Positions 35,565-58,589 of a stretch of DNA of 64,000 bases are shown here, piece by piece. This stretch comes from Candidatus Omnitrophota bacterium (lineage in GTDB: Bacteria; Omnitrophota; Gorgyraeia; 2-01-FULL-45-10), in NCBI GenBank assembly GCA_026387175.1, contig JAPLME010000012.1, positions 139,429 to 203,428 of the forward strand, written 5' to 3'. The notes under the pieces were generated by a model that was not told the origin of the DNA, did not search any database, and saw only the letters and a list, made by a program, of their open reading frames with translations. A program made the translations under genes and the position numbers. Positions within the stretch are counted from its first letter, which is position 1. The number at the start of each line of letters is the position of its first letter.

Positions 35565-36245
35565 ATGCCAAAGATGCCTAAAAGAAGAAATTATTTCATA
35601 AATAGAAAGTTCCAGCTAAGATACACCCTATCGATAGTCGCTATACTTGCCGTAGTGATGATCGCCAGCGGTGTAGGTATCTATTTCGGCATGTGGGGTT
35701 CGATCATAGAGAATTTCTCCCAATTTAAAGTCTCGCAAAATCTCGAGACTGCCAAACGCATAACTGATTATGAAGACGTTCGATACAGGAAAGGCGACTA
35801 TCGTCTTGAAAAGATATTCAGGGAGGCGGAACTGTTGAGCGCCCAGCAACAGGACGCTCTTAAGAACGCTCTGAAGGCGGTTAACCACTCTCTCTTCCCG
35901 AAGATAGCAGTGCTCGCCGTCATAATATTCATCGCCGGCATATTTATTTCCCATAAGATAGCCGGCCCGATGTACAGGATAGAAAAATCGGCCGAGTCTA
36001 TACGTGACGGAGACCTTTCCGTCAGCTTCAGGGTGCGAAAAGGCGACGAGATGAAAGAGGCCTCCACCGCGCTTGAGGAGATGGTGGACTCCCTGCAGGC
36101 AGATTTCGTCAAGATAAAGACAGCCGGTAAGGCGCTCGACGAGAGAATAGGGTTCATCGAGCCTCAGATAAAAGGAGAGGACGCGCGGCGGCTGAAAGAC
36201 ATAGTCAAGGTGATAGATGAGGTACTCTCCAAATATAAGACATGA
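35565..36245 (+). CDS. Small membrane protein: two TM segments plus a HAMP domain and no output domain.
   Basis: RBS aggag. TM1 LSIVAILAVVMIASGVGIYFG and TM2 IAVLAVIIFIAGIFI. HAMP-like IAGPMYRIEKSAESIRDGDLSVSFRVRKGDEMKEASTALEEMVDSL. The stop overlaps the next start (ATGA). Confidence 0.7.
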   Translation: MPKMPKRRNYFINRKFQLRYTLSIVAILAVVMIASGVGIYFGMWGSIIENFSQFKVSQNLETAKRITDYEDVRYRKGDYRLEKIFREAELLSAQQQDALKNALKAVNHSLFPKIAVLAVIIFIAGIFISHKIAGPMYRIEKSAESIRDGDLSVSFRVRKGDEMKEASTALEEMVDSLQADFVKIKTAGKALDERIGFIEPQIKGEDARRLKDIVKVIDEVLSKYKT

Positions 36246-37522
36246 AGAAAACATTTATCTCCGTCTTAGTGCTTTCGCTTTGGCTCCCGCTGACCATTAT
36301 GCCAATAAATGAAGCGGCCACACACGATGAAGAGTTCCTGGATAAACTCCAATATGACAGCATTCTCTATTTCGCCGAACAGGCGAACCCCAAGAACGGA
36401 CTCGTAAAAGACAGTTCCCGTCCCGGAGCTCCCTGCAGCGTCGCGGCCGTCGGTTTCAGCCTGGCCGCCATGTGTATAGGGGAATCTAGGGGATGGATTG
36501 ACGGCGACAAGGCCTATGAGCGGGTCATCAGGACGCTCAGGACTTTCAGGGACGACGTGCCGAACGAACACGGCTTTTTCTACCATTTCCTCGATATGCG
36601 CACGGGATCCAGGACCTGGAGCTCGGAATTATCATCTATAGATACCGCCCTTTTTCTGGCCGGCGCGTTATTCGCTGGTGAATATTTTAAAGGTACCGAG
36701 GCCGAAGAGATAGCGCATCAACTTTATGAGCGGGTGGACTGGCCCTGGATGATGAACGGTAAGTCCGTCATGTGTATGGGTTGGAAGCCGGAATCGGGTT
36801 TTTTGTGGTATTATTGGGATTCCTATAATGAAGGCATGCTATTATACGCTCTCGCCATAGGTTCTCCGACCCACCCTATCCCGAAAGAAGCATGGAGGGC
36901 CTGGAGGAGAGAGGCGGATTCGTATAAAGACTATGATATCGTATATTGTATTACGGGCAGCCTCTTCACGTACCAGTATCCGCATGCCTGGATCGATTTT
37001 CGCGACCTGTATGACGGCAAGATTAACTATTTTGAGAACTCTGTAAATGCTACGAAGGCAAATCGAGAGTTCTGTATCGATAATGCCTCAGAACATAAGA
37101 CTTATGGAGAGAATTCCTGGGGCCTTACCGCTTCTCTTGGTCCGGATGGTTACAGAGGATACGGCGCGAAACCCGGTGAAGGGTTAAATGACGGCACCAT
37201 AGCTCCATGTGGAATGGCCGGCTCGATCGTATTCGACTCTCAGGCGTCTTTGAGCGGGCTGAAATATCTATATGATAATTATAGAAACTTTTTATATGGG
37301 AGATACGGTTTTAAAGACGCTTTTAACCTGGATAAGGGCTGGTGGGCCGAGGAAAATTTGGGCATAGATGTGGGGATCACCCTTGTGATGGTCGAAAATT
37401 TCCGCTCAGAGCTTATCTGGAAGAAATTTATGAAATTAGACGCTATAAAAAGATGGATCGACCTGTGTATGACGAAGGAGACACCTGTAAATTCACAGAG
37501 CCAGATACCCGTTGACAAATAG
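36242..37522 (+). CDS. Secreted (alpha/alpha)6 glycoside hydrolase-like protein of the GH144/DUF3131 (beta-1,2-glucanase-like) type.
   Basis: Signal peptide MKKTFISVLVLSLWLPLTIM. Paralogous to the C-terminal half of 43451 (shared GFFYHFLDM, YQYPHAWIDFRDL, FENS.NAT.ANR.FCIDNA). Family assignment is from memory of similar proteins and is unverified. Confidence 0.55.
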   Translation: MKKTFISVLVLSLWLPLTIMPINEAATHDEEFLDKLQYDSILYFAEQANPKNGLVKDSSRPGAPCSVAAVGFSLAAMCIGESRGWIDGDKAYERVIRTLRTFRDDVPNEHGFFYHFLDMRTGSRTWSSELSSIDTALFLAGALFAGEYFKGTEAEEIAHQLYERVDWPWMMNGKSVMCMGWKPESGFLWYYWDSYNEGMLLYALAIGSPTHPIPKEAWRAWRREADSYKDYDIVYCITGSLFTYQYPHAWIDFRDLYDGKINYFENSVNATKANREFCIDNASEHKTYGENSWGLTASLGPDGYRGYGAKPGEGLNDGTIAPCGMAGSIVFDSQASLSGLKYLYDNYRNFLYGRYGFKDAFNLDKGWWAEENLGIDVGITLVMVENFRSELIWKKFMKLDAIKRWIDLCMTKETPVNSQSQIPVDK

Positions 37523-39192: not shown

Positions 39193-40512
39193 ATGAGGCC
39201 TAATAAGCTTATAACTATATTGTTATTTCCGATCCTTTCTTTTTCGTTATGTCTCGCCGGGTGCGCTCCCGACCATGCCAAGGCCGACAGCGGAAAAACT
39301 CCCGAAGGTAAATCGCCTGTCGAAATAAAAGTCGCTTTCTGGGGATCTCCCGACGAAGTCAATATAACCACAGAGATAATAAGCCAGTGGCAGAAGGCGC
39401 ACCCCGATATAATGGTGAGGCTTGAGCATACTCCTTACAGGGGATATGTCGATAAGCTTCTGACGCGCATAGCGGGCCGCGCCGAGCCCGATATCATCTG
39501 CACCGAAGTGGACCTCTTTGTGACATTCCAGTCGAAGAATGTCCTCCTCGATCTCACGCCTTATATCGGCGGCGATCCGGAGTTCGACCTGAAAGATTTT
39601 TACCCCCAAATAATAAGCCGTTTTACGGTGAAGGATAAGCTCTATGCCGTGCCCCGGGATACGGCGCCTTTCGCGTGCGTATATTACAATAAGAAATTAT
39701 TCGATGAAGTTAAAGTGCCATATCCAACAGATGATTGGGATATGAATGACATGCTCGATAAGGCGAAGAAGCTTACCAAGGTCGATAGTGACGGCCGGGT
39801 CATTCAATATGGTTTTTATGCATGGGCATGGATGAACTTCGTATACTCTTTCGATGGCAGCCTGGTGGACGATGTAAAGAACCCGACAGTTTGCACGTTA
39901 AATTCCAAGGAATCGGTAGAGGGCCTCCAGTTTTATTCCGACCTTATTAATAAATACAACGTACAGCCTTCGACCACCGCTATGACGAACCTGGCCATGG
40001 GCGTGCAGGGGATGTTTATGACGGGACGGCTGGCGATGTTCGCCTCAGGTATATGGGAGACGCCGGGGCTGCGCAAGATACAGGACTTCGAGTGGGATGT
40101 CGCCATGTTCCCTAAGGGGCCCACCGGTAAACGCGGTTTCGGCACAGGCGGGTCAGGATATTGCATATTAAAGGGCTCAAAGCATCCTAAGGAGGCATTC
40201 GAGGTGATAAAAGCCCTGGCCGGGAGAAACGCCCAGATGAAGCTTGCCGAGACGGGCCTCGCGCAGCCCGCGATAATGTCGATCGCGATGAGCAACCTTT
40301 GGGCAAACGACGGCAAGGTCCCGTATAATAAGAAGATGTTGGATGGGGCCATGAAATATGTAGTATATGATCCCTTTACCCCCGTATGGCGGGAGGCCAA
40401 GGAGATGTATATAATACCGGAATTAGATCTTCTGTTCGGAGGAAAGAAGACGGCCCAGGAGGCGGTCGCGGCTTTCATAAACAAGGTGAACGCTCTTATA
40501 AAGAGGCAGTAG
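39193..40512 (+). CDS. ABC transporter extracellular solute-binding lipoprotein (carbohydrate family).
   Basis: RBS aggggga. Lipobox LAGC. Typical SBP_bac_1 composition (WGSPDE, YYNKKLFDE, W-rich). Confidence 0.75.
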   Translation: MRPNKLITILLFPILSFSLCLAGCAPDHAKADSGKTPEGKSPVEIKVAFWGSPDEVNITTEIISQWQKAHPDIMVRLEHTPYRGYVDKLLTRIAGRAEPDIICTEVDLFVTFQSKNVLLDLTPYIGGDPEFDLKDFYPQIISRFTVKDKLYAVPRDTAPFACVYYNKKLFDEVKVPYPTDDWDMNDMLDKAKKLTKVDSDGRVIQYGFYAWAWMNFVYSFDGSLVDDVKNPTVCTLNSKESVEGLQFYSDLINKYNVQPSTTAMTNLAMGVQGMFMTGRLAMFASGIWETPGLRKIQDFEWDVAMFPKGPTGKRGFGTGGSGYCILKGSKHPKEAFEVIKALAGRNAQMKLAETGLAQPAIMSIAMSNLWANDGKVPYNKKMLDGAMKYVVYDPFTPVWREAKEMYIIPELDLLFGGKKTAQEAVAAFINKVNALIKRQ

Positions 40513-42766: not shown

Positions 42767-43378
42767 ATGGCAAAGAAATTGGTTTTTGCCGCAATGTTAG
42801 TGGCCGCGGCGGTAGCTTTAGCGGCCGGCGTTTCCAGCGCAGCCGATGCGGTGGCTGGCGGAAGCGAGTTTATGATCGCTGATTTTAATACCGGAGAAAA
42901 GCCTAATAATATAGGCGGGGACTTTGGAGCGTGGAGCAAGGATCCCACAGATTTCTCTCAGGGGTGCAGCGAGTCGTTTGACACTGTAAACAGGCACGGC
43001 ACTACGGGTTTCGCGATGAAGCTGGACTATTCGGTCGATTCGAAGAATCCCGCGTATAACGGGTTCTGGATGTTCCTGCAGAACTTCGATGCTTCGAAGT
43101 ACGATAATATCGCTCTATGGATAAAGGGTGACGGTAAGATCGGCTATACCACTGTATTTAAGGTAGAGCTGAAGAACGCCTCCAAGCAGGTAGGGCGTTA
43201 TTACGTTACCAACATCACCGACGCCTGGCAGGATATCGTTATTCCGCTTAAGGACTTCAAAGGGATAACGGATCTGTCAAACCTGTCGGAGTTTGTTATC
43301 GTATTCGAAGACAGGATAGCTTCGAATAAGAAAGGTGTCGTCTATATAGATGACATTAGATTCACGAAGAACAAGTAA
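42767..43378 (+). CDS. Secreted stand-alone CBM11/CIA30-like beta-sandwich carbohydrate-binding module protein.
   Basis: RBS aaaggaggagg. Signal peptide. Ends with the VVYIDDIRF motif that recurs in four other proteins of this locus. Confidence 0.6.
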   Translation: MAKKLVFAAMLVAAAVALAAGVSSAADAVAGGSEFMIADFNTGEKPNNIGGDFGAWSKDPTDFSQGCSESFDTVNRHGTTGFAMKLDYSVDSKNPAYNGFWMFLQNFDASKYDNIALWIKGDGKIGYTTVFKVELKNASKQVGRYYVTNITDAWQDIVIPLKDFKGITDLSNLSEFVIVFEDRIASNKKGVVYIDDIRFTKNK

Positions 43379-43450: not shown

Positions 43451-45742
43451 ATGAGACTCATTCCGGCATTAAAAAAGATAGTTGCCGTTACCTCTCTCCA
43501 GATAATCTGCGGTATAATTCTAAATAGCGTAGCGATAGCCCAGGGGCTTCCGCAGAAACCCACCAAGTTCATTAAGCCAATAATTTTAGCCGACTACAAC
43601 GGCGGCTCCCTGTATACGAATCTCGGCGGACTTTCCGGAGGGGATGATAATAAGCCCGGCACGGTCTTTGCGGCCATGATCCAGGATGAAGGCTATGTGA
43701 GAGGTAATACCGGAAGCGCGGTGATGCTCGATTATGACGTTGAAAGGCTGGGCGAATATACTTTTTACTGGATAAAGCTGGGCAAAGAGATCCCGGGCAA
43801 GACCGGCTCTACGGAATCTCTCAACCTTACGGAATATAATTATTTATCATTCTGGATAAAAGGCGTGCCGGAAGTCAGCGACATTAAGATAGAACTGCAT
43901 CAGGACGTAAATGGAGACGGGATATTTACATACGGCCAGGATATAACCAGTTATGTTTATGCGAATGCCTACATTAACGGCGGAATAATATCGAGGGAGT
44001 GGAACAAGGTGGTCATACCCCTTAAGGTGTTCAATAAAATAACCGATTGGTCGAAAATGCTGGAACTTGTTTTCGTATTTGAAAATAAAGCGGGTGATAA
44101 GAAAGGCGTGGTATATATTGACGACATCCTTTTTGGCAGTCGCCCGGAGGGTGACACGTTTTCCCGTAAGCCTGAGGACATCAAAGAGATAAAGCCCCCC
44201 GACGAGGCATCGTTTAAAGTCAACGGCAAAAGCGCAAAGAATTGTATCACCTTTAACGGCGTCAATGAGCTTGAAATAAGCGCCGAGAGTTTTTATCAAA
44301 ACCCTTTTTTAGAGAGTGTCAGGTTTGAATATTCCGTGGACAAGGGGCATACCTGGAGGACCATAGGCATAGACTACGATATAAGCGGCAATGTTCACAA
44401 GACGGATTGGCAGCCGGATAACTCCAGAGAGCTCTATAGCTATCAGCTGAGAGCTGTCGCCACCGATATAATGGGAAACGAGAAGGCCACGGGAGCGCTT
44501 ATCGACTGCGGCGTCCAGCCGATTACCGATGACGAATTTTTAAATTTGATAGAGAAGAAAGCCTTTGAATTTTTTAAAGAACATCAGGACCCGGATACAG
44601 GGCTCTTTGCCGATACATCCGGCGGAGGCGACGCCAGTATAGCCTCTACCGGAATAGGGCTTGCCGCGCTATGTATAGGAGCGGAAAGAGGATGGCTGGA
44701 CAAAGATGAGGCCAGGAAGAGAGTTTTGACGGCGCTTAATACCTTTCTGCCCAAATCGCCGGAGGAGGAAGCCCTCGCGGAAGGCAGATTCGGGTTCTTC
44801 TATCATTTTTTAAATATGCATACGGCAAAGCGCGCCGGAAAGAGCGAGATATCGACGGTCGATACGGCGATACTGATTTGCGGCGCCATCGCCTCCGGCG
44901 AATATTTTGGCGGTGAAATTAAACAGAAGGCCGAGGAGATATATAAAAGGGTCGAGTGGGGGAAGTTCTTATGCCAGGAGAAGGGGCCGTGGTTCAATAA
45001 TTTTTCTATGGGTTGGTCTCCTGAGCGGGGGTTCCTGGATTCATATTGGGACTTTTATACGGATGAGGCCATACTTGTCAGCCTGCTCGCCATAGGCTCT
45101 CCGACATTCCCTACCGGTCCGGAAGTATTCTATGCATGGACCAGGCATTCGGCAGCCTATGAGACAGGCAAGCCGTTCATATTCACATGGCACGGAGCTC
45201 TCTTCTCTTATCAGTACGCTCATCTCTGGTTTGATCTGCGAAATATGGCCGATAAACAGGGGATCGACTGGTTTGAAAATTCCACGAATGCCACCCTGGC
45301 TAACAGGCAGTTTTGCATTGACAATGCCGATAATTTTAAAGGGTATGGCCCGAACAGCTGGGGCATAACATCTATGGCCAGGCCGGGCGGTTACGTAATG
45401 CATTTCGGCATTCCCCCTACAGGAAGCGGCGAACCGCAATATGACGGCACCGTATCTCCGACCGGCCCTGCCGGATCCATAGTTTTTACTCCTTATTTAT
45501 CGACATCCGCGTTAAAATATATGTATATGACGCATCCCAGGCTCTGGGGGCAGTACGGCCTTAAAGACTCTTTCAATTTCGATATGAATTGGTATGCCCC
45601 TACCTATTATGGAATAGGGGTGGGGATGATACTATTGCCCATAGAGAATTTTCGCACGGGATTTATCTGGAATAATTTTATGAAGAATAAGTATGTTCAG
45701 GATGCGCTGGTGAAAGCGGGATTTACCAAGAAGAAAGGGTGA
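43451..45742 (+). CDS. Secreted two-domain protein: an N-terminal CBM11/CIA30-like module plus a C-terminal GH144/DUF3131-like (alpha/alpha)6 hydrolase domain.
   Basis: RBS aaggaag. N-terminal half ...VVYIDDILF. C-terminal half paralogous to 36242 (GFFYHFLNM, YQYAHLWFDLRNM). Confidence 0.6.
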   Translation: MRLIPALKKIVAVTSLQIICGIILNSVAIAQGLPQKPTKFIKPIILADYNGGSLYTNLGGLSGGDDNKPGTVFAAMIQDEGYVRGNTGSAVMLDYDVERLGEYTFYWIKLGKEIPGKTGSTESLNLTEYNYLSFWIKGVPEVSDIKIELHQDVNGDGIFTYGQDITSYVYANAYINGGIISREWNKVVIPLKVFNKITDWSKMLELVFVFENKAGDKKGVVYIDDILFGSRPEGDTFSRKPEDIKEIKPPDEASFKVNGKSAKNCITFNGVNELEISAESFYQNPFLESVRFEYSVDKGHTWRTIGIDYDISGNVHKTDWQPDNSRELYSYQLRAVATDIMGNEKATGALIDCGVQPITDDEFLNLIEKKAFEFFKEHQDPDTGLFADTSGGGDASIASTGIGLAALCIGAERGWLDKDEARKRVLTALNTFLPKSPEEEALAEGRFGFFYHFLNMHTAKRAGKSEISTVDTAILICGAIASGEYFGGEIKQKAEEIYKRVEWGKFLCQEKGPWFNNFSMGWSPERGFLDSYWDFYTDEAILVSLLAIGSPTFPTGPEVFYAWTRHSAAYETGKPFIFTWHGALFSYQYAHLWFDLRNMADKQGIDWFENSTNATLANRQFCIDNADNFKGYGPNSWGITSMARPGGYVMHFGIPPTGSGEPQYDGTVSPTGPAGSIVFTPYLSTSALKYMYMTHPRLWGQYGLKDSFNFDMNWYAPTYYGIGVGMILLPIENFRTGFIWNNFMKNKYVQDALVKAGFTKKKG

Positions 45743-45747
45743 CCTTT

Positions 45748-47651: not shown

Positions 47652-50600
47652 ATGGGGCAGGGCAATAAAACTTTGTTCAAAAACGTTATTCGTGTCGGTT
47701 GTCTTACTGCATATACCCTGATTACGCTATCGGCCGGATTTATTTTACCGCTTGCCGGTGCCGAGGAGCGTCTTGCCGCGGTAAACGATCCGACCGGTTT
47801 TAGTATACTGGAGGCCGAAGAGAACGGGATGTTTAATATCGGCCCCGCGATAGGAGGCGTCGATACCGAGGCCGACGCGTCGCTCAAGAAAAATGTATTT
47901 AAATTCGACTATACGATATTCCCCGGGGCCATCGTTGGCCTTTGGACGAAGACTTATCCCGCTAAGTTCAGGGCAGACATAGTTGACGCGGTCAAGGCCG
48001 GCGTAAAAGTGCAGAATCCCGTTCAACTCGATGAGGTTACGGTTAAGCTTGAGATAAAGGGCGATAGGGGGGTGCAAAGCGCGCCGGTACATCTGGAAGA
48101 ATCGGGATGGAGCTATATAAATGAGCAGGTGGATTGGGAGAGGATAGGAAAGCTTACTGAAGTCGTTTTTGTAGTCAGTCCGAAAGACAGCAAGAAACGC
48201 CTCGAAGGAATAATTTATTTCGATCTTAATTTTTACAAATTGACGTTCCTGCAGAAGTACGTTATAGCGATAAAAGCCGGGCTGGTCCTTTTAGCGGGAC
48301 TTATACTGGCGCTTATAGCGGCGATTGCCGGTATGCTCTTTGGTAAAAAGCCCGCTCCGGAGGAGAAGAAACCGGCCCTATCCGGCATTGGCAGGGATAT
48401 TCTCTACGGCATAGTTGTGGTAATGACTTTAGGCGCCGCGATGAAGATATATTATCTTGGGATGGCCAACCCTCTGAATGCGGGTTTTAGTTACGCGTTC
48501 CTCGCGGTAGGATTAATAGGCGTCCTTATCGCCGAAGTTTTGAAATTTGTCCTGGCCGGCAGACACCTTACGGCAGCTGAGGTTTTCCAAAATGTCCTGG
48601 TTTCGGGTCTTCTGGCGGCTTCATCGAGCAGGTTTGAGCTTTTACAGGCGCCGGCATCGTGGGTCCAGCTCTTGATGTTAAGTAATCTTATATCGGCGCT
48701 TGCCTTCATAATTTACCATTTTGCCAATGCCAGGTCGATAGTCTCTTCCGGCAGGCACTTAAAAGTGATTAGTGGTTCGCTGATAGCCGGAACGCCGTAT
48801 CTTTTCAACTGGCTGCTTCTTCTGGGAAGCGTCGGCATGCTCAGGATAATAGGTAACGGCGCAACCTTTGGGCTCATCGCGACATGGCCGGCCATATCCG
48901 AACTGACAGGCAGGCTGCTTGTCATGTTCGTCTTTAATGAAATTGTCACCAACAGCATTTCCATCGCGACTAAAAATAAGGTTGTTAAGACTCTAAGGGC
49001 CCATCTGATAATGTTGTTGGTCTCTTTAGGAGTTGTTATAGCTCCGGTGATAGCGAATTTCGGTTCCGGTGCGTTGATCGCAAAACTGCCTATGGTTCTG
49101 AGAGCCTTTGCCGCTATCCTGACGACGGCTCTTTCCTACGGCGGCCTGTGGGGCGAGGTTTATCTGATAACGGGCGCTCTGCTCGACGCCGGCAAACATA
49201 TAGCTCCTTCAGCCGATATCATCTCTAAACATGTCAGCACAGGTATAAAAAAAGGTATGGCATATAGCGCTATATTGATGGGGATGATGTATGCGCTCAG
49301 CATCATATTGAACGCGCCGATGTCGCAGAAGGTGATGACAAGCGCGCCTATAATAATCGGGATCTTCGCAGGCGCGGCTCTCTTCCCGCTGGTTAAGACC
49401 ATAATCGAGAGCTTTGACGGCAGTATACGGTTCTTTGAAAGAGTTAAATATAGCTACGAGGATCTGACTTTATGCGCCAGGGGCGCTGTCGCAGGTTTCG
49501 GGTTCGCCTATATGGCCACTAATAACCTGTTCGCGCATAATATGCCCGACAGGATCCTATTCGGCCTTTTGGTAGGCCTATTGGCGTCCGGCGGTGTCAG
49601 CATCCTGAGGGATGGATGGTATGCGCTAAGAGGCCGCGGGAAGATACAGTCCTGGAGGCTCTATTTTGTCGATTCGCTTCTGGGAATTTTCGTGGGAAGC
49701 GCCGCGGCATTCTATATGGATTCTCTGCAGGTTCCGGTGGTTGTCGAAAAGTTCAGGCTATATCTCAGCTCGAATCTTCCGCCGGCCGATTATATAACTT
49801 ACCCTCTGGTCAACAAATGGGGCCGCATAGATCTCGGAAGCTATACCGGCGGAGTTAAGCTGCTTTACACCGAGTCGGTAGCCGGAGTCATCAACTGGTC
49901 GATCGCCGCATGGCTATTCGCTATAAACAAAGTATTTTTACAGGCATTTTTTGAGAAGGACAAGACCCCCATTAAGTTCTTTTTCTCGAAGGCCGGGTTC
50001 GCCCAGCTGATCGAACATATGATATATGTATTGCGATGGGGTCTATGGATGTCGCCCATCATATTCACGTTCCTGCGTATGATGCCGGACCCGACCTGGT
50101 ATAACCAGGACGGTGCTATCCATACGGTCTTTGCCGTTTTTAATAATATGACGATGACTCCGGAGGCGTTCAGGGCATGGAGCCTGCAGGTCTTCGTATG
50201 GATACTGGCCCTCGACTGGTTCCGCATTCTTATATGGATGGACCATATGGGACTGCGCGTAGCCACTCTCGTTAACTTAAGCTTCATCGGAATGGACAGG
50301 CTCGATGAGAGGATAGGGCGCTTTATCGGCCCGGCGTCGGCCCAGCGGTATATTCCGGAAGGCGTGAAACGTTTCGCGACATGGGCGCCGCTACTCATTC
50401 CTTTTTATCTTCCCAGAGGAAAAGAATGGGACTATGCCTGGAACACCTCGGTGGCGATGCAGAACGCCTCCGAAGGCAAGGGAATACTTTTTGCAATACA
50501 GCGCCTTGCGTTGCCGCAGATGATCATCCTGATATGTTCGGCCATACTTGCATGCACTGTCATTTCCTTCGTTGTGCGCGCGTTAAGCCGGAGATCGCGC

Positions 50601-53600
50601 AAGCGCCGCATCACCTCTTATGAGCTCGTCAACAGAGAATACAAGGTTGTGATCAGGGAGTCCGGCGATATATACAGCGAGGTCACCGGCAGAGAGAGCG
50701 ATGTCAGCAGGCGTTCTTATGACACGATAGACCCGTGCGGCAGGATATTGTATGTGGTAGATGCTTCCGAAAGATCCGCCGCCAATAAACGCGCATGGCC
50801 GGTAGTGGGTAACTTCCCGGCCGGCAAGTTCGAAGCGTCCAACATCGAGAAATGCGGCGATGCTTTCAGAATAATTAATACCAGTAACGGCGTCAAGACG
50901 ACTGTGGAGATCAGCCTGCCCGACCAGGATTCCACGGCGGAGGTGTGGAAGGTAACGGTCGAAAATATGACCGATAAGCCGCGCCAGTTAAAGGTCGTCC
51001 CGTATCTGGAGTGGGTATTGAACGGCGGCATTCATGACAGGTTCCATACGCAGTATGCGAGGCTCTACCCGGAGATGGAATATATCAGCAGGGCAAATGC
51101 CGTGCTGTCATGGCAGAAGGCCACCAAATCGATGGGCATACTGGCCTCGGAGATGCCTACGGAAGGGTTTACGGCTTCGCGCGTCGATTTCATCGGCCGC
51201 GCCAGAAGCATCTGGAACCCGCGCATAATGGATAACCTGGACTTTATGCCGAGCCGCGACACTTCCGGCTATCCGACGTTCGATCCCATCGGAAGCCTTA
51301 TCGTAAATGCCGCAGTGGGGCCAAGGGCTTTCGCGACGATGCGGTTTATGATAGGTTATTCGAAGGATCGGGATAAAGCTCTGGAGCTTATTAAGAAACA
51401 CCTGAACACCCAGAGCGGAGACGCTCTCCCTGCTCCGGAAAAGAAGAAGAGGGCGCTCTTGATCGGCCACGGCGAGATACCGCCCGGGACTCCGCAGCCG
51501 TATTCTACATTTTCCGGAAATGGAAACTCGCTGATCGTCCATACGCCGTATACGCCCAGGCCCATCGACCATGCCATGTCGAATGCCATACATTCCGTGA
51601 TGGTGACCAACCGCGGCCTTCACACATCCTGCAACGGCAATTCACAGCAGAACCGTCTTACGCCGGATTGGGCCGATACGGTTACAAGGGAGATCCCTTC
51701 GGAGGCGATCTATCTTTTCGACCAGGACCATAATGAATGGTACTCGCCGACATATCATCCTTTGAACGACGGAAGCGCCAAATATGAATCTGAGTTCAGC
51801 GTAGACGGAAGCGCGATATTCCGCATGTCCAAAGGGACCATCTCGACGGAGCTGACCATATTTGTGCCGCCGGAAGATACGACGGGAGTCTATCTATTGA
51901 CCGTAAAAAATAACGCGGACAGCTCCAGGCGCATAAGAGTATCCCCTTATTTCCAGATGGTGATGGGTTTCATGCCTGAAAAGTCCGGCCCCCTGGGAGG
52001 GCGTTACGATAAAGCGTTAGACGCTTTATTCTATGAGAACCCCCGCAACATATTCCGTTCAGGGCGGGCGTTCGTTTCGATGTCCATCCCGAGCCAGGGC
52101 TTCGAGGTGAAGCGGGGAAGGTACTTCGGTTCCAGGTGCGCCGTCGCGCATCCGTTCATGGTGGAGAACGGCATGCCGGACGCCGCTCAACTTACCGATG
52201 AGGCCCAGATAGCTGGGCTTCTCGGGACCATCGAGGTCCCCGCGCACGGAGAGCAAACGGTCGCGATCATCCTCGGACAAGCCGACGACAAGAAGGCCTG
52301 CGCCGCGATAATCCGGAAATATAAAGACATCGAAAAGGTCAGGAAATCTCTTGAAGATACCCGCAAATGGTGGCTCAGCCTGATGGCAACGGTTAAGGTT
52401 GAGACCAATAGCCCTGAGTTCGATCGGTATCAGAACTGGCTCAAATATCAGGCGCTGGCCGAACGTATATGGGCAAGAAAAGGTTTCTATCAGACCAGCG
52501 GCGCGTATGGTTTCCGCGATCAGCTCCAGGATACCGTTAACTTGATCTGGATCGATCCGGCCCTTGCGCGCAAACAGATAATCCTGCATGCGTCCCAGCA
52601 GTTCATCCAGGGAGACGTTTTCCACTGGTTCTTCACATTGACGGACGGCCGTACGGCGTTCTCCTGCCGCTCGCATGCCTCCGATAACCCGGTATGGCTG
52701 TCGTGGGGAGTAGCCGAATACATCAGGACCACGGGAGACCATTCGATATTGGATGAGATGACCTCTTATGTGGAGTCGGAGTTTCCTTTCGCGAAACTTC
52801 CTAAGAATAAACAAGGGTGGGGGCATCTGTATCACAGGACGACGAGATCCGATACGGTTTACAGGCACTGCATGAGGTCGATAGATCTTATCCTGAACGA
52901 CCGGACAGGTAAAAGCGGATTGCCGCTTATCCAGGTCGGAGACTGGAACGACGGTCTCGATGAGATAGGATCGGAAGGCAGGGGCGAGAGCGTATGGCTG
53001 GGATTCTTCCTGTACTATATCCTTAATGAGATGGTGGATATTATAGAAGCCAAAGACGGCCCCGCGCGCAAGAACCATTATGTAAAGAAGATGGATGCGC
53101 TTAAGAACGCTCTGGAAAAGACCTGGAGAGAAGACAGATATCTGCGTGCCATCCACGATGACGGCACGGAGATAGGCATTAAAGGAAGCGGAGTATGGGA
53201 GATAGATGCGCTGACGGCATCGTGGGCGGTAATAAGCGGTATCAATTTCGAGCGGGGACTTGCAATATTTAATACCGCTCTCAAGATACTCGAAAAAGAT
53301 AACGCTATATTGCTGGGATGGCCGGCCCTGCGCGAAGATACTAAGCCGTATCTGGGCAGGAGCAGCAAATATCCCGAAGGCGTACGCGAGAACGGTATGT
53401 ACTGCCACGGCGTTCAATGGCTTGTAAGGGCCGCGCGCATTCTTGCGGAGGAGTTCGAAAAACAGGGGAATCACGCCAAAGCCGATGAGTACAGGGCAAC
53501 CGCATACAGGTTATGGCTCAAGATATCGCCGATCGCCCATATGAAGCCGGGAGAGATCGAGATCTACGGAGGCCAGCCCAATAAACAGGCGGCGGATGTC

Positions 53601-53804
53601 TTGACAAACTTTGAGCCCGGACGAATGATATGGCACGGGTATACCGGCGCCGCCGGATGGATGCTGCGTCAGGCCATGGAAGGCGTAGTGGGAGCGTCTC
53701 TGGCAAAGAATGAGATGATCCTGCCGAAAGACCTGGATCGTCCGAGAGGCGGTTTAAAAATAAAGAGCGTGCAGAGGGACGTGAGCAAGAGCCCTTTTAA
53801 GTAA
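47652..53804 (+). CDS. Giant membrane protein (2050 aa): N-terminal CBM-like module, about 20 TM helices, and a C-terminal GH94-family glycoside phosphorylase domain (cellobiose / beta-1,2-oligoglucan phosphorylase-like).
   Basis: Strong RBS. Hydrophobic helices from aa ~200-980. C-terminal region has GH94 hallmarks including the catalytic GDWNDGLD (near 52930) and NGMYCHGVQW. Confidence 0.7.
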   Translation: MGQGNKTLFKNVIRVGCLTAYTLITLSAGFILPLAGAEERLAAVNDPTGFSILEAEENGMFNIGPAIGGVDTEADASLKKNVFKFDYTIFPGAIVGLWTKTYPAKFRADIVDAVKAGVKVQNPVQLDEVTVKLEIKGDRGVQSAPVHLEESGWSYINEQVDWERIGKLTEVVFVVSPKDSKKRLEGIIYFDLNFYKLTFLQKYVIAIKAGLVLLAGLILALIAAIAGMLFGKKPAPEEKKPALSGIGRDILYGIVVVMTLGAAMKIYYLGMANPLNAGFSYAFLAVGLIGVLIAEVLKFVLAGRHLTAAEVFQNVLVSGLLAASSSRFELLQAPASWVQLLMLSNLISALAFIIYHFANARSIVSSGRHLKVISGSLIAGTPYLFNWLLLLGSVGMLRIIGNGATFGLIATWPAISELTGRLLVMFVFNEIVTNSISIATKNKVVKTLRAHLIMLLVSLGVVIAPVIANFGSGALIAKLPMVLRAFAAILTTALSYGGLWGEVYLITGALLDAGKHIAPSADIISKHVSTGIKKGMAYSAILMGMMYALSIILNAPMSQKVMTSAPIIIGIFAGAALFPLVKTIIESFDGSIRFFERVKYSYEDLTLCARGAVAGFGFAYMATNNLFAHNMPDRILFGLLVGLLASGGVSILRDGWYALRGRGKIQSWRLYFVDSLLGIFVGSAAAFYMDSLQVPVVVEKFRLYLSSNLPPADYITYPLVNKWGRIDLGSYTGGVKLLYTESVAGVINWSIAAWLFAINKVFLQAFFEKDKTPIKFFFSKAGFAQLIEHMIYVLRWGLWMSPIIFTFLRMMPDPTWYNQDGAIHTVFAVFNNMTMTPEAFRAWSLQVFVWILALDWFRILIWMDHMGLRVATLVNLSFIGMDRLDERIGRFIGPASAQRYIPEGVKRFATWAPLLIPFYLPRGKEWDYAWNTSVAMQNASEGKGILFAIQRLALPQMIILICSAILACTVISFVVRALSRRSRKRRITSYELVNREYKVVIRESGDIYSEVTGRESDVSRRSYDTIDPCGRILYVVDASERSAANKRAWPVVGNFPAGKFEASNIEKCGDAFRIINTSNGVKTTVEISLPDQDSTAEVWKVTVENMTDKPRQLKVVPYLEWVLNGGIHDRFHTQYARLYPEMEYISRANAVLSWQKATKSMGILASEMPTEGFTASRVDFIGRARSIWNPRIMDNLDFMPSRDTSGYPTFDPIGSLIVNAAVGPRAFATMRFMIGYSKDRDKALELIKKHLNTQSGDALPAPEKKKRALLIGHGEIPPGTPQPYSTFSGNGNSLIVHTPYTPRPIDHAMSNAIHSVMVTNRGLHTSCNGNSQQNRLTPDWADTVTREIPSEAIYLFDQDHNEWYSPTYHPLNDGSAKYESEFSVDGSAIFRMSKGTISTELTIFVPPEDTTGVYLLTVKNNADSSRRIRVSPYFQMVMGFMPEKSGPLGGRYDKALDALFYENPRNIFRSGRAFVSMSIPSQGFEVKRGRYFGSRCAVAHPFMVENGMPDAAQLTDEAQIAGLLGTIEVPAHGEQTVAIILGQADDKKACAAIIRKYKDIEKVRKSLEDTRKWWLSLMATVKVETNSPEFDRYQNWLKYQALAERIWARKGFYQTSGAYGFRDQLQDTVNLIWIDPALARKQIILHASQQFIQGDVFHWFFTLTDGRTAFSCRSHASDNPVWLSWGVAEYIRTTGDHSILDEMTSYVESEFPFAKLPKNKQGWGHLYHRTTRSDTVYRHCMRSIDLILNDRTGKSGLPLIQVGDWNDGLDEIGSEGRGESVWLGFFLYYILNEMVDIIEAKDGPARKNHYVKKMDALKNALEKTWREDRYLRAIHDDGTEIGIKGSGVWEIDALTASWAVISGINFERGLAIFNTALKILEKDNAILLGWPALREDTKPYLGRSSKYPEGVRENGMYCHGVQWLVRAARILAEEFEKQGNHAKADEYRATAYRLWLKISPIAHMKPGEIEIYGGQPNKQAADVLTNFEPGRMIWHGYTGAAGWMLRQAMEGVVGASLAKNEMILPKDLDRPRGGLKIKSVQRDVSKSPFK

Positions 53805-53813
53805 GGAGCTTTT

Positions 53814-55880
53814 TTGAAAAAGAGCCTTAGAGTCGCATTATCGGTCCTCGTCATCTCATCTATTCTTGCGATGGGCGGCCTGCCGGCGTTATACTGCTCG
53901 GCGGATAAACGCCCCATACCTAAGGAATTCCCATCGGAAACTATCGCGGATTTTAACGGGGCGGGCCCTATAAATAATTTGGGCGGAGAATCGGGGACAT
54001 GGGAAAAGAACCCGGAAGATAATGCCCAGTCTATAGCCCTCTCTTTCGATAATGTGGTAAAACACGGCGCCGCCGGCGTATCGCTTAAACTGGAATATAA
54101 CGTCAACTCTCCTAAAGATACCGCTAACGGCTTCTGGACGCAGCTCAATGATTTTGACGCCTCATCGTATGATCATTTTGAATTCTGGGTCAAAGGCGAT
54201 GGGGAAAAGGGCTTTACGACGGTCTTCAAGATAGAATTTAAAAAGATCCAGAAAGATTCGGAGGGCCGCGACGAAACGATAAAAGCAAGCTATATCGTGA
54301 AAGGCGTTACCGACAGATGGCAGAAGGTCTCGATACCGCTGAACGTCATGAACGGAATCCGGAACTGGCGCGAGCTGAAGGAGTTCGTCGTATCTTTTGA
54401 GAAGAGGCGCGTCGATAATCCCGCGGGAACCTTATATTTTGATGACCTGGCTTTCGTGAAGACAGGCGAGCCCGGGCCCAAGATCACCGATATAGTCCCT
54501 CATAAGAAAAAGAAGACCGACAAAGAGGGCAACAGCGAAGACTTTGCCAGATTCCTCATAGCCAGGCTGTACGGATTTCCGAAAGAGACCTTTGTTAAAA
54601 AAGAATTCCCGAAAGATGACCGCGATTTTCTCCTGACGATAGCCAAAGATACCTGGAAGTACTTCGATAAGATCGTCGATAAGGAGTACGGCCTTCCGCT
54701 CGATAATATAAAATTCAGCGAAAGAGCCACAGTTTCCTCGGATACCCGTGTCGGGGACTATACCAATGTCACCAATGTCGGCGTGTATCTTATGTGTGTC
54801 ATATCGGCATATGATTTCGGGTTTATTTCCAAAGAAGAGGCGATAAGGCGCCTCGAAGCCACCATAGATTCTGTGGAAAAATTGGAAAAGTATAACGGAT
54901 TTCCTTACAATTATTACGATGTCACGATATTCCAGAGAACAAGCAACTTTATCTCTTTTGTCGACAGCGGCTGGCTCGCCGCCGGCATTATCGTCGCAAG
55001 GAACGCGTTTCCCGAAGAGCTGAGCCAAAAATGCGGTAAACTGCTGGATGAAATGAACTTCGCATTCTTTTATGACCCCGTTGAGGGCCATATGTATCAC
55101 GGTTTCTACACTAATATAAACTACTACTCGGAATATCAATACGGCGCTTTTTACACCGAGCCCAGAGCGATAAGCTATATTGCCATAGGCAAAGGAGATG
55201 TACCTAAAGAGCACTGGTTTCGCATGCCAAGGACTTTCCCTGAGGAATGGCCATGGCAGACTCAAAGCCCCCTGAACAGAAAAGAGAAGACGTATCTCGG
55301 ATATAAAGTATGGGGCGGTTACTATGAATATGAAGGCATGAAATTTGTGCCGAGCTGGGGCGGGAGCATGTTCGAGGCTCTGATGCCCACGGTCATCATA
55401 GATGAGAAGGGGCTTTCGCCGAAGAGCCTGGGATTGAATGACGAAAGGCATGCCAAGATACAGGTGAAATACGCATTAGAAAAGCTGGGTTACCCGATTT
55501 TCGGCATGTCCCCGGCTTGCGTTCCGGGCGACGGGTATTCCGAATATGGCGTAAAAGTTCTCGGCATAAAAGGATATAAGCCCGGAGTCATTACGCCCCA
55601 TGCGACGTTTCTGGCTCTTGAATTCGTGCCTGAGGAATCGATTAAAAATTTAAGAACCATGGCAGTTAAATACAATGCGTATGGCGAGTATGGCTTTTAT
55701 GATGCCATAAATATAGCTACAGGTAAAGTCGCGATGGAGTACCTTTGCCTGGACCAGGCGATGAGTTTTATTGCACTTAATAACTACCTGAATGACGGCG
55801 CGATAAGAAAAAGGTTCCATAACGACCCGATAGCTAAAAACGCCGAAGAATTGATAAAAGTTGAAGATTTCTTTGAATAA
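53814..55880 (+). CDS. Secreted protein with an N-terminal CBM11/CIA30-like module and a C-terminal putative six-hairpin glycosidase-like domain.
   Basis: TTG start with RBS aaggag. Signal MKKSLRVALSVLVISSILAMG. CBM region ends TLYFDDLAFV. The C-terminal domain family is unverified. Confidence 0.55.
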   Translation: MKKSLRVALSVLVISSILAMGGLPALYCSADKRPIPKEFPSETIADFNGAGPINNLGGESGTWEKNPEDNAQSIALSFDNVVKHGAAGVSLKLEYNVNSPKDTANGFWTQLNDFDASSYDHFEFWVKGDGEKGFTTVFKIEFKKIQKDSEGRDETIKASYIVKGVTDRWQKVSIPLNVMNGIRNWRELKEFVVSFEKRRVDNPAGTLYFDDLAFVKTGEPGPKITDIVPHKKKKTDKEGNSEDFARFLIARLYGFPKETFVKKEFPKDDRDFLLTIAKDTWKYFDKIVDKEYGLPLDNIKFSERATVSSDTRVGDYTNVTNVGVYLMCVISAYDFGFISKEEAIRRLEATIDSVEKLEKYNGFPYNYYDVTIFQRTSNFISFVDSGWLAAGIIVARNAFPEELSQKCGKLLDEMNFAFFYDPVEGHMYHGFYTNINYYSEYQYGAFYTEPRAISYIAIGKGDVPKEHWFRMPRTFPEEWPWQTQSPLNRKEKTYLGYKVWGGYYEYEGMKFVPSWGGSMFEALMPTVIIDEKGLSPKSLGLNDERHAKIQVKYALEKLGYPIFGMSPACVPGDGYSEYGVKVLGIKGYKPGVITPHATFLALEFVPEESIKNLRTMAVKYNAYGEYGFYDAINIATGKVAMEYLCLDQAMSFIALNNYLNDGAIRKRFHNDPIAKNAEELIKVEDFFE

Positions 55881-55960
55881 TTATGATATAATATAGCTAG
55901 TTCCGGTGTTTTTTATTGACCGGTTATTATAAACATTATAAAAGAAAGAAGGAGAATTCT

Positions 55961-56905
55961 TTGGCAAGGATAAGAGGCTCCGAAAAAGAAGCAGTAGCGG
56001 GTTACCTCTTTCTACTCCCGAACTTATTGGGATTTATGGTATTTACGCTTGTGCCGGTCGCGCTTTCTCTCGCACTTAGTTTTATCGACTGGGACATGTT
56101 ATCCGCGCCAAAGTTCGTAGGGTTGCAGAATTTTATAAATCTTCTCGGTTTCCACATGGAAACCGGGCATATCACCGCTAACGATCCTCTTTTTTGGAAA
56201 TGTGTTGGCAACACCCTCTTTTTAATGATGATAATCCCGATCGAGATAATGGCGTCGCTCGCTCTGGCGCTGGTTATGAACCAGAAGGTGAGATTAATTA
56301 ATATATTCAGAGCGGTATACTTTTTGCCTACCATAACCAACGGTGTGGCGGTGTGCCTTCTCTGGGCGTGGCTGTACAATTCGGAATTCGGGCTCTTCAA
56401 TACTCTGCTTCTTAAGGCAGGCGGAATACTCTCTATACCCATTCATAGGGTGGAATGGCTTACTTCAACGGTATGGGCAAAGCCGTCACTTATGTTTATG
56501 GGCCTTTGGATAATGCTCGGCGGATATAATATGATACTTTTTATGGCAGCCCTCCAGGGCGTGCCAAGGGAGCTTTATGAAGCCGCCGAGATGGATGGCG
56601 CGGGCAGCTGGCATAAATTTTGGAACGTGACATGGCCCATGATAAGCCCCACCACATTCTTTGTCTTTGTAATGGCGGTTATAGGAGGGTTCCAGGGCGG
56701 TTTCATGCAGGCTTATATCATGACAGGCGGCGGCCCTGACCGGTCGACCACTACGCTCGAGTATCTGATATATAATCATCTTTACAGCTGGCAGCACGTC
56801 GGATATGCGGCGAGCATCGCCTGGTTCGTATTCATAGTGGTATTTATCGCTACGATATTTAACTGGAGATTCGGCGGCAAACTGGTTCAATATTCGCACT
56901 ATTGA
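55961..56905 (+). CDS. Carbohydrate ABC transporter permease (MalF/UgpA-like).
   Basis: AAGGAG RBS 6 nt before the TTG at 55961; the track's upstream 55916 start lacks an RBS. Six TM segments. YLFLLPNLLGFMVF N-terminal motif. Confidence 0.75.
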   Translation: MARIRGSEKEAVAGYLFLLPNLLGFMVFTLVPVALSLALSFIDWDMLSAPKFVGLQNFINLLGFHMETGHITANDPLFWKCVGNTLFLMMIIPIEIMASLALALVMNQKVRLINIFRAVYFLPTITNGVAVCLLWAWLYNSEFGLFNTLLLKAGGILSIPIHRVEWLTSTVWAKPSLMFMGLWIMLGGYNMILFMAALQGVPRELYEAAEMDGAGSWHKFWNVTWPMISPTTFFVFVMAVIGGFQGGFMQAYIMTGGGPDRSTTTLEYLIYNHLYSWQHVGYAASIAWFVFIVVFIATIFNWRFGGKLVQYSHY

Positions 56906-56957
56906 TTTCAAAAAGGCTTAAGGGATGCTATACAGCTCAGACGAAATAGGGAAGGTA

Positions 56958-57809
56958 ATGGATAAAAGAGTATCAGGCTTTTTAAAGAAGGCCTGCATAT
57001 ACGCTTTTCTGATAATTGGCGGCGCGACGATGATCATCCCTTTTATATGGATGCTCTCGACATCTCTCAAGTCTTACTCGTCCGTATTTATATTTAATAT
57101 CAAAGACATACAATGGTTTCCGCAGCCTGTATATTGGAAAAATTATATAGATGTCTGGAAGGTCGTGCCTTTTGCGAGGTTCTACGCGAACAGCGTATTC
57201 GTAGTGGTCCTGGTGACATTAGGGCAGGTAGTGACGAGCGCAGGCGCGGCATACGCGTTCTCTCGCTTGAGGTTCCCCGGCCGCGATAAGATATTCTTCG
57301 CTTACCTTGCCACTATGATGATACCCGGTTCCGTAACGATGATACCGGTATTCGCGCTTATGCGCACGTTTGGCTGGATCGATACGTATAAGGCTCTTAT
57401 AATTCCGGCCATATTCTCCGCGTACGGCACTTTTTTACTCAGGCAGTTCTTCATGACGATACCGAGGGACCTCGAAGATGCCGCAAAGATAGACGGCTGC
57501 AGCCTCTGGGGCATATTCTGGCGCGTCATAATGCCGCTTTCGCATACCGCGATAGCGACGCTTACGATATTTGTATCACTCGGCAACTGGGTAAGTTTTA
57601 TGTGGCCGCTCCTGGTCACGAACTCGATAGAGAAGAGGACCTTGCCCGTGGGTTTGGCGTATTTTCAGGAGCTTTATCAGTATGCCCAGCCCGACTGGGG
57701 ACTTTTGATGGCAGGCTCCCTGATAACGATGGTGCCGGTCATAATCGTCTTCTTATTTAACCAGAGATTCTTTGTGGAAGGAATAAAGCTGACGGGAATG
57801 AAAGGGTAA
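56958..57809 (+). CDS. Carbohydrate ABC transporter permease (MalG/UgpE-like).
   Basis: EAA-loop DLEDAAKIDGCSLWGIFWRVIMPL. The start could be 56925 or 56958 (RBS agggaagg before 56958). Confidence 0.75.
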   Translation: MDKRVSGFLKKACIYAFLIIGGATMIIPFIWMLSTSLKSYSSVFIFNIKDIQWFPQPVYWKNYIDVWKVVPFARFYANSVFVVVLVTLGQVVTSAGAAYAFSRLRFPGRDKIFFAYLATMMIPGSVTMIPVFALMRTFGWIDTYKALIIPAIFSAYGTFLLRQFFMTIPRDLEDAAKIDGCSLWGIFWRVIMPLSHTAIATLTIFVSLGNWVSFMWPLLVTNSIEKRTLPVGLAYFQELYQYAQPDWGLLMAGSLITMVPVIIVFLFNQRFFVEGIKLTGMKG

Positions 57810-58589
57810 GTGGCTATTACAGTAAAAGAGATGAATAGAGCAGCCGGTACGAGTAAAAAGATCCATACGAGAGATCTTCAGTCCGCGCTTAATGACGAGA
57901 TCGCGAAAACATTCCTGAGGACCTCGGAGAAATCCTATATCCGGAAGAAGACGACGCTGCGTCTTGCCTGGTCCGTCGCTATTGTGGCTTCGATACTCGC
58001 CGTAGTCGCTTTTATCACGAAGATCAATTTTGACGTAAGGGTCAGGATACTGGGCGAGATGCCTTCGGTGAGCGTAGAGCGGGGCCAGATAAACTTCGAC
58101 AATATGAAGGATAAAGGGGTATTCCTGATAAAGGGCATATCTTCCAACAATGATATTGTAAAATCGACTTTTTTCGACGGAGATGCCAAGATAGGCTCGA
58201 GAACGGCCGATGACCATATACTTTTGTCTAACGCCAAAGGCAGCGGCTGGGGGAACTTCACGATAGATCTTAAAGAGCCCATAGGCCTTAATAAGCTGGA
58301 TCTAAAATTTGTGGCAAGAGGTTCCTCGGGCGGGGAGTACCTTGGCATAGTTATAGTGGATTCTGACAACAAGACGTACAGGATGGAGCGGGGCCTCTCC
58401 ACTAAACTCACAAACGAATGGCAGCTTTACAAGGTGGATTTCCGGCCCATTAAAAAGGCGGTAGATCTGGCCAATATCACCACTATAAAATTTGAATTCG
58501 GAAGCCTGACGGTCGGCAACAGTTCCGGCGCGGCGATATTTCTTAAGGATATATACGTGGCGAAAGCGAGGAGATCAAGATGGCTGTGA
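57810..58589 (+). CDS. Membrane-anchored CBM11/CIA30-like module protein.
   Basis: N-terminal TM LAWSVAIVASILAVVAFI. The C-terminus (...IFLKDIYVAK) is homologous to the other CBM modules. The GTG at 57810 directly abuts the permease stop; an alternative ATG lies at 57831. Confidence 0.55.
   Translation: MAITVKEMNRAAGTSKKIHTRDLQSALNDEIAKTFLRTSEKSYIRKKTTLRLAWSVAIVASILAVVAFITKINFDVRVRILGEMPSVSVERGQINFDNMKDKGVFLIKGISSNNDIVKSTFFDGDAKIGSRTADDHILLSNAKGSGWGNFTIDLKEPIGLNKLDLKFVARGSSGGEYLGIVIVDSDNKTYRMERGLSTKLTNEWQLYKVDFRPIKKAVDLANITTIKFEFGSLTVGNSSGAAIFLKDIYVAKARRSRWL

Follow-up and report, generated by a model that had tools for sequence, protein, structure and literature searches.

Repeated carbohydrate-binding-type beta-sandwich modules in a predicted beta-1,2-glucan utilisation locus of Omnitrophota

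Why should a single bacterial gene cluster encode five beta-sandwich modules of the kind found in carbohydrate-binding modules (CBMs), and what would they bind? The question is raised by a 64,000-nucleotide stretch of a Candidatus Omnitrophota bacterium genome (GenBank assembly GCA_026387175.1, contig JAPLME010000012.1, positions 139,429 to 203,428 of the forward strand), here referred to as the window, in which an initial annotation had claimed five CBM11/CIA30-like modules of one family in one locus. On balance we lean towards the reading that these modules are exported, homologous, non-catalytic binders of beta-1,2-glucan chains or oligosaccharides, encoded in a utilisation cluster that is conserved in Omnitrophota. 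The five open reading frames (ORFs) were all verified on the + strand, at 42767-43378, 43451-45742, 47652-53804, 53814-55880 and 57810-58589, with products of 203, 763, 2050, 688 and 259 amino acids (aa) in the same order, and their modules are named m1 to m5, respectively. Moreover, the count of five stands, as a hidden Markov model (HMM) scan of all 419 six-frame ORFs of at least 50 aa in the window gave no sixth copy. The modules and the domains joined to them are as follows.

42767..43378, + strand: m1, stand-alone exported module, 203 aa; Sec signal peptide at about aa 1-25, module at aa 26-203 (nt 42842-43375), C-terminal end VVYIDDIRF
43529..44143, + strand: m2, N-terminal module, aa 27-231 of a 763-aa exported GH144-like protein; m1-type HMM match, E 4e-65
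44507..45736, + strand: predicted GH144-type beta-1,2-glucanase catalytic domain, aa 353-762 of the m2 protein; PDB and Pfam matches
47781..48245, + strand: m3, N-terminal, predicted extracytoplasmic module, aa 44-198 of a 2050-aa membrane/GH94 protein; C-terminal end IIYFDLNF
48264..50651, + strand: membrane-spanning domain of the m3 protein (aa 205-1000), polytopic, with 11 or more hydrophobic segments
51507..53762, + strand: predicted GH94 phosphorylase domain, aa 1286-2037 of the m3 protein; matches to PDB 8rf9 and to the Pfam GH94 catalytic and supersandwich domains
53916..54464, + strand: m4, N-terminal module, aa 35-217 of a 688-aa exported protein; m1-type HMM match, E 1e-81; C-terminal end TLYFDDLAF
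54603..55877, + strand: SGL-clan (alpha/alpha)6 catalytic domain of the m4 protein; closest family GH189, without its nucleophile
58056..58565, + strand: m5, beta-sandwich ectodomain, about aa 83-252 of a 259-aa single-pass membrane protein; C-terminal end AIFLKDIYV

The modules had been described as about 170 aa long and as either stand-alone or N-terminal. The length was near the mark, but it is non-uniform, with an actual range of about 155-205 aa; m1 is free and m2, m3 and m4 are N-terminal, but m5 is not free. Signal peptides lie ahead of m1, m2, m3 and m4, and m5 is preceded by a basic stretch at the N-terminus and then a single membrane helix (aa 52-70). The 2050-aa protein has a Lys-rich loop behind the helix that comes first after m3, and RALSRRSRKRR, rich in Arg and Lys, behind its final helix; by the positive-inside rule, m3 would lie outside and the GH94 domain in the cytoplasm, and the same rule would place m5 outside. 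Only the orientation of the two ends of this protein is derived here, and the count of its hydrophobic segments is a lower bound, as counting by hydropathy did not settle their number.

By sequence the five modules fall into three families, here called the m1 type (m1, m2 and m4), the m3 type and the m5 type. We propose that all of them would bind beta-1,2-glucan or its oligosaccharides outside the cytoplasm, in the periplasm or at the surface. The m2 and m4 modules would hold their glucanases on the polymer, m1 would be a free binder that retains the glucan or hands it over, m3 would stand at the outer face of the membrane-embedded GH94 protein, and m5 would be anchored in the inner membrane beside an ATP-binding cassette (ABC) importer. 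Carbohydrate binding is suggested by fold, gene context and copy-number behaviour; we infer the ligand and how the work is divided between the five modules.

Enzymes and predicted substrate of the locus

The catalytic domain of the m2 protein matches GH144 (PDB 8xul XcSGL, E 4.9e-64; 5gzh CpSGL, E 1.8e-40; Pfam PF10091, E 1e-62), and XcSGL is a GH144 beta-1,2-glucanase solved with a beta-1,2-heptasaccharide (PMC12102758). For the m4 protein, the catalytic domain comes closest to the cyclization domain of Cgs (GH189), with E 2e-42 for both 8wy1 TiCGSCy and 8rf9. The GH189 nucleophile is E1442 and the acid/base is E1356 (PMC10834661). In the alignment E1356 and E1400 are retained, E1442 is replaced by Pro and HH1536/7 by LD, and a GH189-specific helical insertion of about 140 aa is missing. 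A periplasmic cyclase of GH189 was rejected for this protein, as the nucleophile and the His pair are lost. Because these residues and the insertion are gone, the m4 enzyme is probably an inverting beta-1,2-glucanase, possibly GH193-like, and this is more likely than a cyclase. At its C-terminal end the m3 protein resembles A. tumefaciens Cgs, matching the GH94 domain of that enzyme (8rf9 residues 2033-2771) with E 4e-107 over 750 residues, compared with only E 1e-37 for the cellobiose phosphorylases.

As all the catalytic domains map to beta-1,2-glucan families and the gene content is that of an SGL cluster, the substrate common to the locus is most likely beta-1,2-glucan. The initial annotation had proposed that all the proteins act on one insoluble or polymeric glucan; a single glucan is indeed what the catalytic domains point to, but the insolubility does not hold, beta-1,2-glucan being a soluble polymer.

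Synteny of the cluster, modules included, extends over at least 15 genomes of Omnitrophota. The modules vary in number: one locus (L015) has three consecutive m1-type genes, and m3-type modules occur in 1-4 tandem copies, always before the same membrane domain and then, in full-length sequences, GH94. Moreover, a locus of Elusimicrobiota (L017, 17-7111), independent of the Omnitrophota cluster, also contains m1-type modules together with a GH144-like enzyme, and this enzyme bears a CBM9 as well. The same locus encodes a 627-aa non-catalytic protein with three CBM_11 stretches (69.2 bits) and a C-terminal FlgD_ig/CHU_C domain (a type IX secretion signal), and a 703-aa protein of no assigned function; alongside are a fusion of solute-binding protein and permease, a GH35 gene and a MalK-type ATPase. 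The GH35 family has a member known to be active on beta-1,2 linkages. Occurrence as free copies, in variable number, in tandem arrays and on unrelated scaffolds is typical of carbohydrate-binding modules.

That the modules bind another glycan, such as an envelope polymer of the cell itself, of a host or of a prey, and so anchor the enzymes instead of holding their substrate, we consider unlikely. The ligands of characterised CBM11 and CBM30 members are beta-1,4 and mixed-linkage glucans, our literature search returned a single beta-1,2-binding module, the beta-trefoil CBM92, and sequence alone does not reveal specificity. However, in two different phyla the module type goes together with enzymes for beta-1,2-glucan, m3-type modules are essentially confined to the GH94 membrane protein, and the locus genes examined (36242-59809) included none identified as coding for an enzyme on another glucan.

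Fold and relatedness of the modules

We compared the modules with curated family models. Against Pfam CBM_11 (PF03425, cut-off 27 bits), m1 scored 31.1 bits, above the cut-off, m4 scored 17.8 bits, below it, and m2, m3 and m5 had no match. Against CIA30 (PF08547, cut-off 24), m1 fell just under with 23.1 bits and the other four had no match, and against CBM30 (PF21582, cut-off 27 bits) both m1 (18.4 bits) and m2 (18.2 bits) were under. Weak sub-cut-off CBM30 matches were found in 7 of the 24 m5-family members, with a best E of 0.0021; Pfam scans of the single members of the m3 family gave nothing meaningful, ten m3-type representatives being without a Pfam domain above threshold, and NCBIfam had no model for any of the five module proteins. 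Among solved structures, CBM30 of C. thermocellum (1wmx/2c24) is the only one that the m1-type profile detects by sequence (E 4e-5, 108 profile positions), and the m5 profile reached it with E 0.19 only. Yeast Epa adhesins, which came up as possible relatives of m1 in a single-sequence PDB search, stayed below threshold (E 0.018-0.3) and were treated as noise.

The AlphaFold2 models of m3 and m5 are beta-sandwiches, with core confidence (pLDDT) of 80-89 and 86-91, respectively. The fold is a beta-jelly-roll superposable on CtCBM11, and the best structural and sequence neighbours of the modules are overwhelmingly carbohydrate-binding modules. The modules belong to the galactose-binding-domain-like beta-sandwich CBM superfamily, nearest to CBM11 and CBM30, and strict membership of CBM11 would be claimed for m1 only, and narrowly. 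The CBM11/CIA30-like label thus survives at the level of the superfamily, m1 passing CBM_11, but it does not extend to CIA30, which remained under its cut-off, or to m2-m5, which are under that of CBM_11. No profile search placed any module in a non-carbohydrate family, the outcome by which the initial annotation would have been refuted.

Several results weigh against the reading of the modules as glucan binders. First, m1 alone passes a curated CBM model, and does so narrowly, and the solved CBM11 (1v0a) was not listed at E <= 10 by the m1-, m3- or m5-type profiles. Second, the same fold is also found in non-binding roles, for example in CIA30 and in the N-terminal region of the GH144 enzyme BDI_3064. 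Third, m1 is the most conserved protein of the locus, with 73-94% identity across the Omnitrophota loci with a conserved cluster (L003-L016), more than the catalytic domains (72-87%), the other modules having 33-83%. Such conservation is unusual for a simple CBM and may hint at an additional protein partner.

One rival is that the N-terminal modules are structural parts of the enzymes, which shape the active site or serve oligomerisation as described for the N-terminal region of the exo-acting GH144 enzyme BDI_3064. We hold this to be quite unlikely, since the module type also occurs free (m1), membrane-anchored (in relatives), one to four in tandem and on three unrelated catalytic or membrane scaffolds. 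In addition, the match to 5z06 has a root-mean-square deviation of 13.5 A, no better than that of dozens of CBMs, and 5z06 goes undetected in sequence by the m1-, m3- and m5-type profiles.

The conservation of m1 would also fit CIA30-like protein-protein assembly domains, forming an envelope complex perhaps with a TPR protein and with m1 as the adaptor. NCBI has an entry 'CIA30 family protein [Candidatus Omnitrophica bacterium]' that is 100% identical to the m1 product, the CIA30 model gives 23.1 bits for m1 and 42.8 for the Elusimicrobiota protein, and the gene for the TPR protein always stands between that of m2 and that of m3 or m4. We nevertheless find such an assembly role highly doubtful: the CIA30 score is under its cut-off in m1 and always below the CBM_11 score, and the neighbours in structure and in sequence are those given above. 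Moreover, the role of the CIA30 family is in the assembly of mitochondrial complex I, which does not apply to exported bacterial proteins and has no counterpart in this context.

The relatedness of the modules was examined at increasing depth. BLASTP aligned m1 with m4 at 46% identity (E 1e-51), m1 with m2 at 31% (E 4e-20) and m2 with m4 at 30% (E 1e-17), and by these alignments the three are unambiguous paralogues. Pairwise BLASTP and phmmer searches among the five modules gave no convincing link for m3 or m5 (m5-m1, 23% over 78 aa; m3, at most 18.9 bits), and hhalign with shallow alignments of 8-24 sequences was weak (Prob 75% for m5, 6% for m3). With deep family alignments of 161, 82 and 109 sequences, hhalign matched the m1 type with the m3 type at Prob 96% and E 2e-9, in register over 129 columns or nearly the whole domain, and with the m5 type at Prob 88% and E 3e-6 over 92 columns. 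The scores were 58.6 (m3) and 44.4 (m5), compared with at most 20.5 (E at least 0.02) for 30 column-shuffled and one reversed m1-type alignments as controls. The m3 and m5 types gave no match directly (E 0.14). Since both match the m1 type yet not each other, the m1 type is the hub of the family. In HMM scans within the window, m5 and m1 are mutual best non-self matches (both E about 2.5e-4), and m1 is the best non-self match of the m3 profile, at a non-significant E of 0.27. The proposal of one family is thus borne out as common homology through the m1 type, but the family is three sequence families and not a tight one.

The motif [VT][VL]Y[IF]DD[IL].F, said to end each module, is present in its strict form only in m1 (VVYIDDIRF), m2 (VVYIDDILF) and m4 (TLYFDDLAF), and is degenerate in m3 (IIYFD-LNF) and m5 (AIFLKDIYV). 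A relaxed motif matches exactly the five module ORFs, and it was written after seeing the five sequences. Invariant in the family are also the surface residues Y88, W101, Y112, K132, E134, W154 and E175 of m1. Searches for homologues returned 877 for m1, its named top matches all being Omnitrophota, and 77 for the m5 protein, those with a named source all being Omnitrophota and none carrying a precomputed Pfam domain; an exhaustive search of 1.84 billion proteins gave 152 representatives of the m3 module.

It is very unlikely that m3 and m5 are unrelated beta-sandwiches sharing just the fold and the last-strand pattern, as the non-significant pairwise and small-profile comparisons, the missing match between their two types and the failure of either family to pass any Pfam cut-off might suggest, given the deep profile-profile scores against the shuffles, the in-register alignment of m3 and the reciprocal best matches of m5 and m1, even with the m3 profile's own best match, m1, non-significant. 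None of these four rivals is favoured, and the binding of beta-1,2-glucan remains the reading we lean to.

As a separate observation, the protein at 43451 has within m2, at aa 154-161 (window about 43910-43935), an inserted loop, HQDVNGDG, that resembles calcium-binding loops of the DxDxDG type. This loop is kept in 10 orthologues as HQD[VIT]D[GAN][DN]G[IV]F, with HED in one of them, and is not present in m1 and m4.

The membrane GH94 protein and the neighbouring genes

The 2050-aa protein (47652-53804) joins the exported m3, a polytopic membrane domain of about 790 aa and the predicted cytoplasmic Cgs-type GH94, and this architecture is the most unusual item of the locus. Its membrane domain had no match in Pfam or NCBIfam and nothing at E <= 10 in a PDB search, and a GT84 domain is absent from the protein. 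The membrane domain co-occurs with m3-type modules in 45 of 145 representatives. The protein could be a translocating phosphorylase or a synthase driven by glucose-1-phosphate. A more far-reaching proposal, which we offer tentatively and regard as rather unlikely, is that the three module types found new beta-1,2-glucan-specific beta-sandwich CBM families, and that the m3 type marks an undescribed machine of 1-4 periplasmic modules, a membrane domain of about 790 aa and a cytoplasmic Cgs-type GH94. Such a machine would catch a glucan chain in the periplasm, pass it across the membrane and cleave it inside the cell by phosphorolysis into glucose-1-phosphate or, in reverse, polymerise and export glucan from glucose-1-phosphate without a GT84 domain.

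The m3/GH94 gene is missing in some relatives. A soluble GH94 gene of about 800 aa was seen in L003 (5148-7559), L006 (4014-6404) and L018 (5284-7668), located between the binding-protein and response-regulator genes, and the window has none at this position.

From about 25.2 kb to 59.8 kb of the window, all genes lie on the + strand with short gaps or overlaps. Besides the module genes, the following features were assigned.

36242..37522, + strand: exported 426-aa GH144-like protein without a module; Pfam PF10091, E 3e-73; synteny in relatives
39193..40512, + strand: ABC solute-binding protein with a lipoprotein-type N-terminus; Pfam SBP_bac_1, E 4e-40; synteny in relatives
55916..57809, + strand: two ABC permease genes directly upstream of the m5 gene; orthologues carry BPD_transp_1; synteny in relatives
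58580..59809, + strand: ROK-family protein, regulator or sugar kinase; Pfam ROK, E 1e-35

The m5 gene follows the second ABC permease ORF, which ends at 57809, with zero intergenic gap and overlaps the ROK gene. No gene for the ATPase of the ABC importer was found in the cluster.

Between the second permease gene and the m5 gene, an extra m1-type gene is present in L001 (19030-19884), L013 (10475-11359), L014 (925-2091) and L016 (9755-10507). These proteins have about 250-295 aa, with an N-terminal extension before the module that starts in L001 with a hydrophobic stretch. The membrane-anchored protein of L001, whose gene is not in the window, has 69% identity to m1 and scores 31.5 bits with CBM_11. 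We also considered that an m1-type module replaces m5 by position in L001, and rejected this, as relatives hold both genes in tandem.

Three further genes of the region deserve a description. A 524-aa exported protein (37591-39165) has a PQDPPAP-type proline-rich repeat near its N-terminus and had no family match; its position between the GH144-like gene and the binding-protein gene is kept in relatives, and our guess is that it is a candidate outer-membrane channel for the glucan. A 610-aa TPR protein (45739-47571) has weak YbgF/BamD-like matches, and its gene is invariably flanked by that of m2 on one side and that of m3 or m4 on the other. Upstream, a 3316-aa ORF (25201-35151) has phosphoglucomutase domains at aa 1876-2358 and, downstream of these, a SKSGSTDET motif, which we take to be typical of glucose-6-phosphate isomerase; its orthologues have faint UDPGP matches. 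At least three relatives with sequence reaching that far (L001, L002 and L009) have it upstream of the glucan locus, and it may be a fused protein for sugar-phosphate interconversion.

Significance and comparison with known systems

In the automated annotation, m1 is labelled CBM_11/CIA30 and m3 and m5 are designated 'hypothetical'. It is common for a glycan utilisation locus to contain repeated modules of the CBM type; the two remote module subfamilies, the m3 and m5 types, are new, and the specificity is plausibly so. Our literature search, combining beta-1,2-glucan with CBM11 or Omnitrophota with GH94, GH144 or CBM11, found no paper. Beta-1,2-glucans are periplasmic, symbiosis- or virulence-related glucans of many Gram-negative bacteria, and the enzymes acting on them have been characterised only from 2014 on. 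Should the modules bind beta-1,2-glucan, they would serve as ready probes and affinity tags for this polymer, whose detection is difficult, and as a sequence marker for such loci in metagenomes. The uncultivated, ultra-small Omnitrophota conserve a complete beta-1,2-glucan apparatus, and this bears, speculatively, on the question of whether periplasmic glucans from other bacteria serve them as food.

Among the known systems, CBM92 of Chitinophaga pinensis, a beta-trefoil, has measured binding to sophorose and sophoropentaose (PMC11039641), and it was the only such CBM found in the literature search, which gave none of the beta-sandwich fold. It differs from the modules here in its fold and its preference for beta-1,6-glucan, and has no sequence relation to them. 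The non-catalytic surface glycan-binding proteins of the polysaccharide utilisation loci of Bacteroidota belong to other sequence families; in the present locus there is no SusC/SusD pair and no lipoprotein signal on m1, and the importer is an ABC system.

CBM11, represented by CtCBM11 of C. thermocellum Lic26A-Cel5E (1v0a), is closer, but m1 is barely over its Pfam cut-off, m2-m5 are under it, and 1v0a was not found by the m1-type profile. Its known ligands are beta-1,4 and beta-1,3-1,4 glucans, whereas the enzymes here point to beta-1,2-glucan. CBM30, from C. thermocellum Cel9D-Cel44A/CelJ (1wmx, 2c24), was reached by the m1-type profile. However, all the CBM30 Pfam scores here are lower than 27 bits, and CBM30 itself is a binder of cellulose or beta-1,4-glucan in cellulosomal enzymes.

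The nearest likeness in gene content is with the SGL clusters, namely IALB_1177-1187 of Ignavibacterium album and the SOGP clusters of Listeria and Lachnoclostridium. The Ignavibacterium cluster is described as having two GH144 genes, a Cgs-type GH94 and a Sopn-binding ABC system (PMC8861115). The locus in the window has the same set as judged by sequence, that is, two GH144 homologues, a Cgs/SOGP-type GH94 and an ABC importer with a solute-binding protein. The accessible parts of the SGL cluster papers make no mention of CBM11-like modules, whereas here a module is present in five genes and, unlike in those clusters, GH94 is fused to a large membrane domain.
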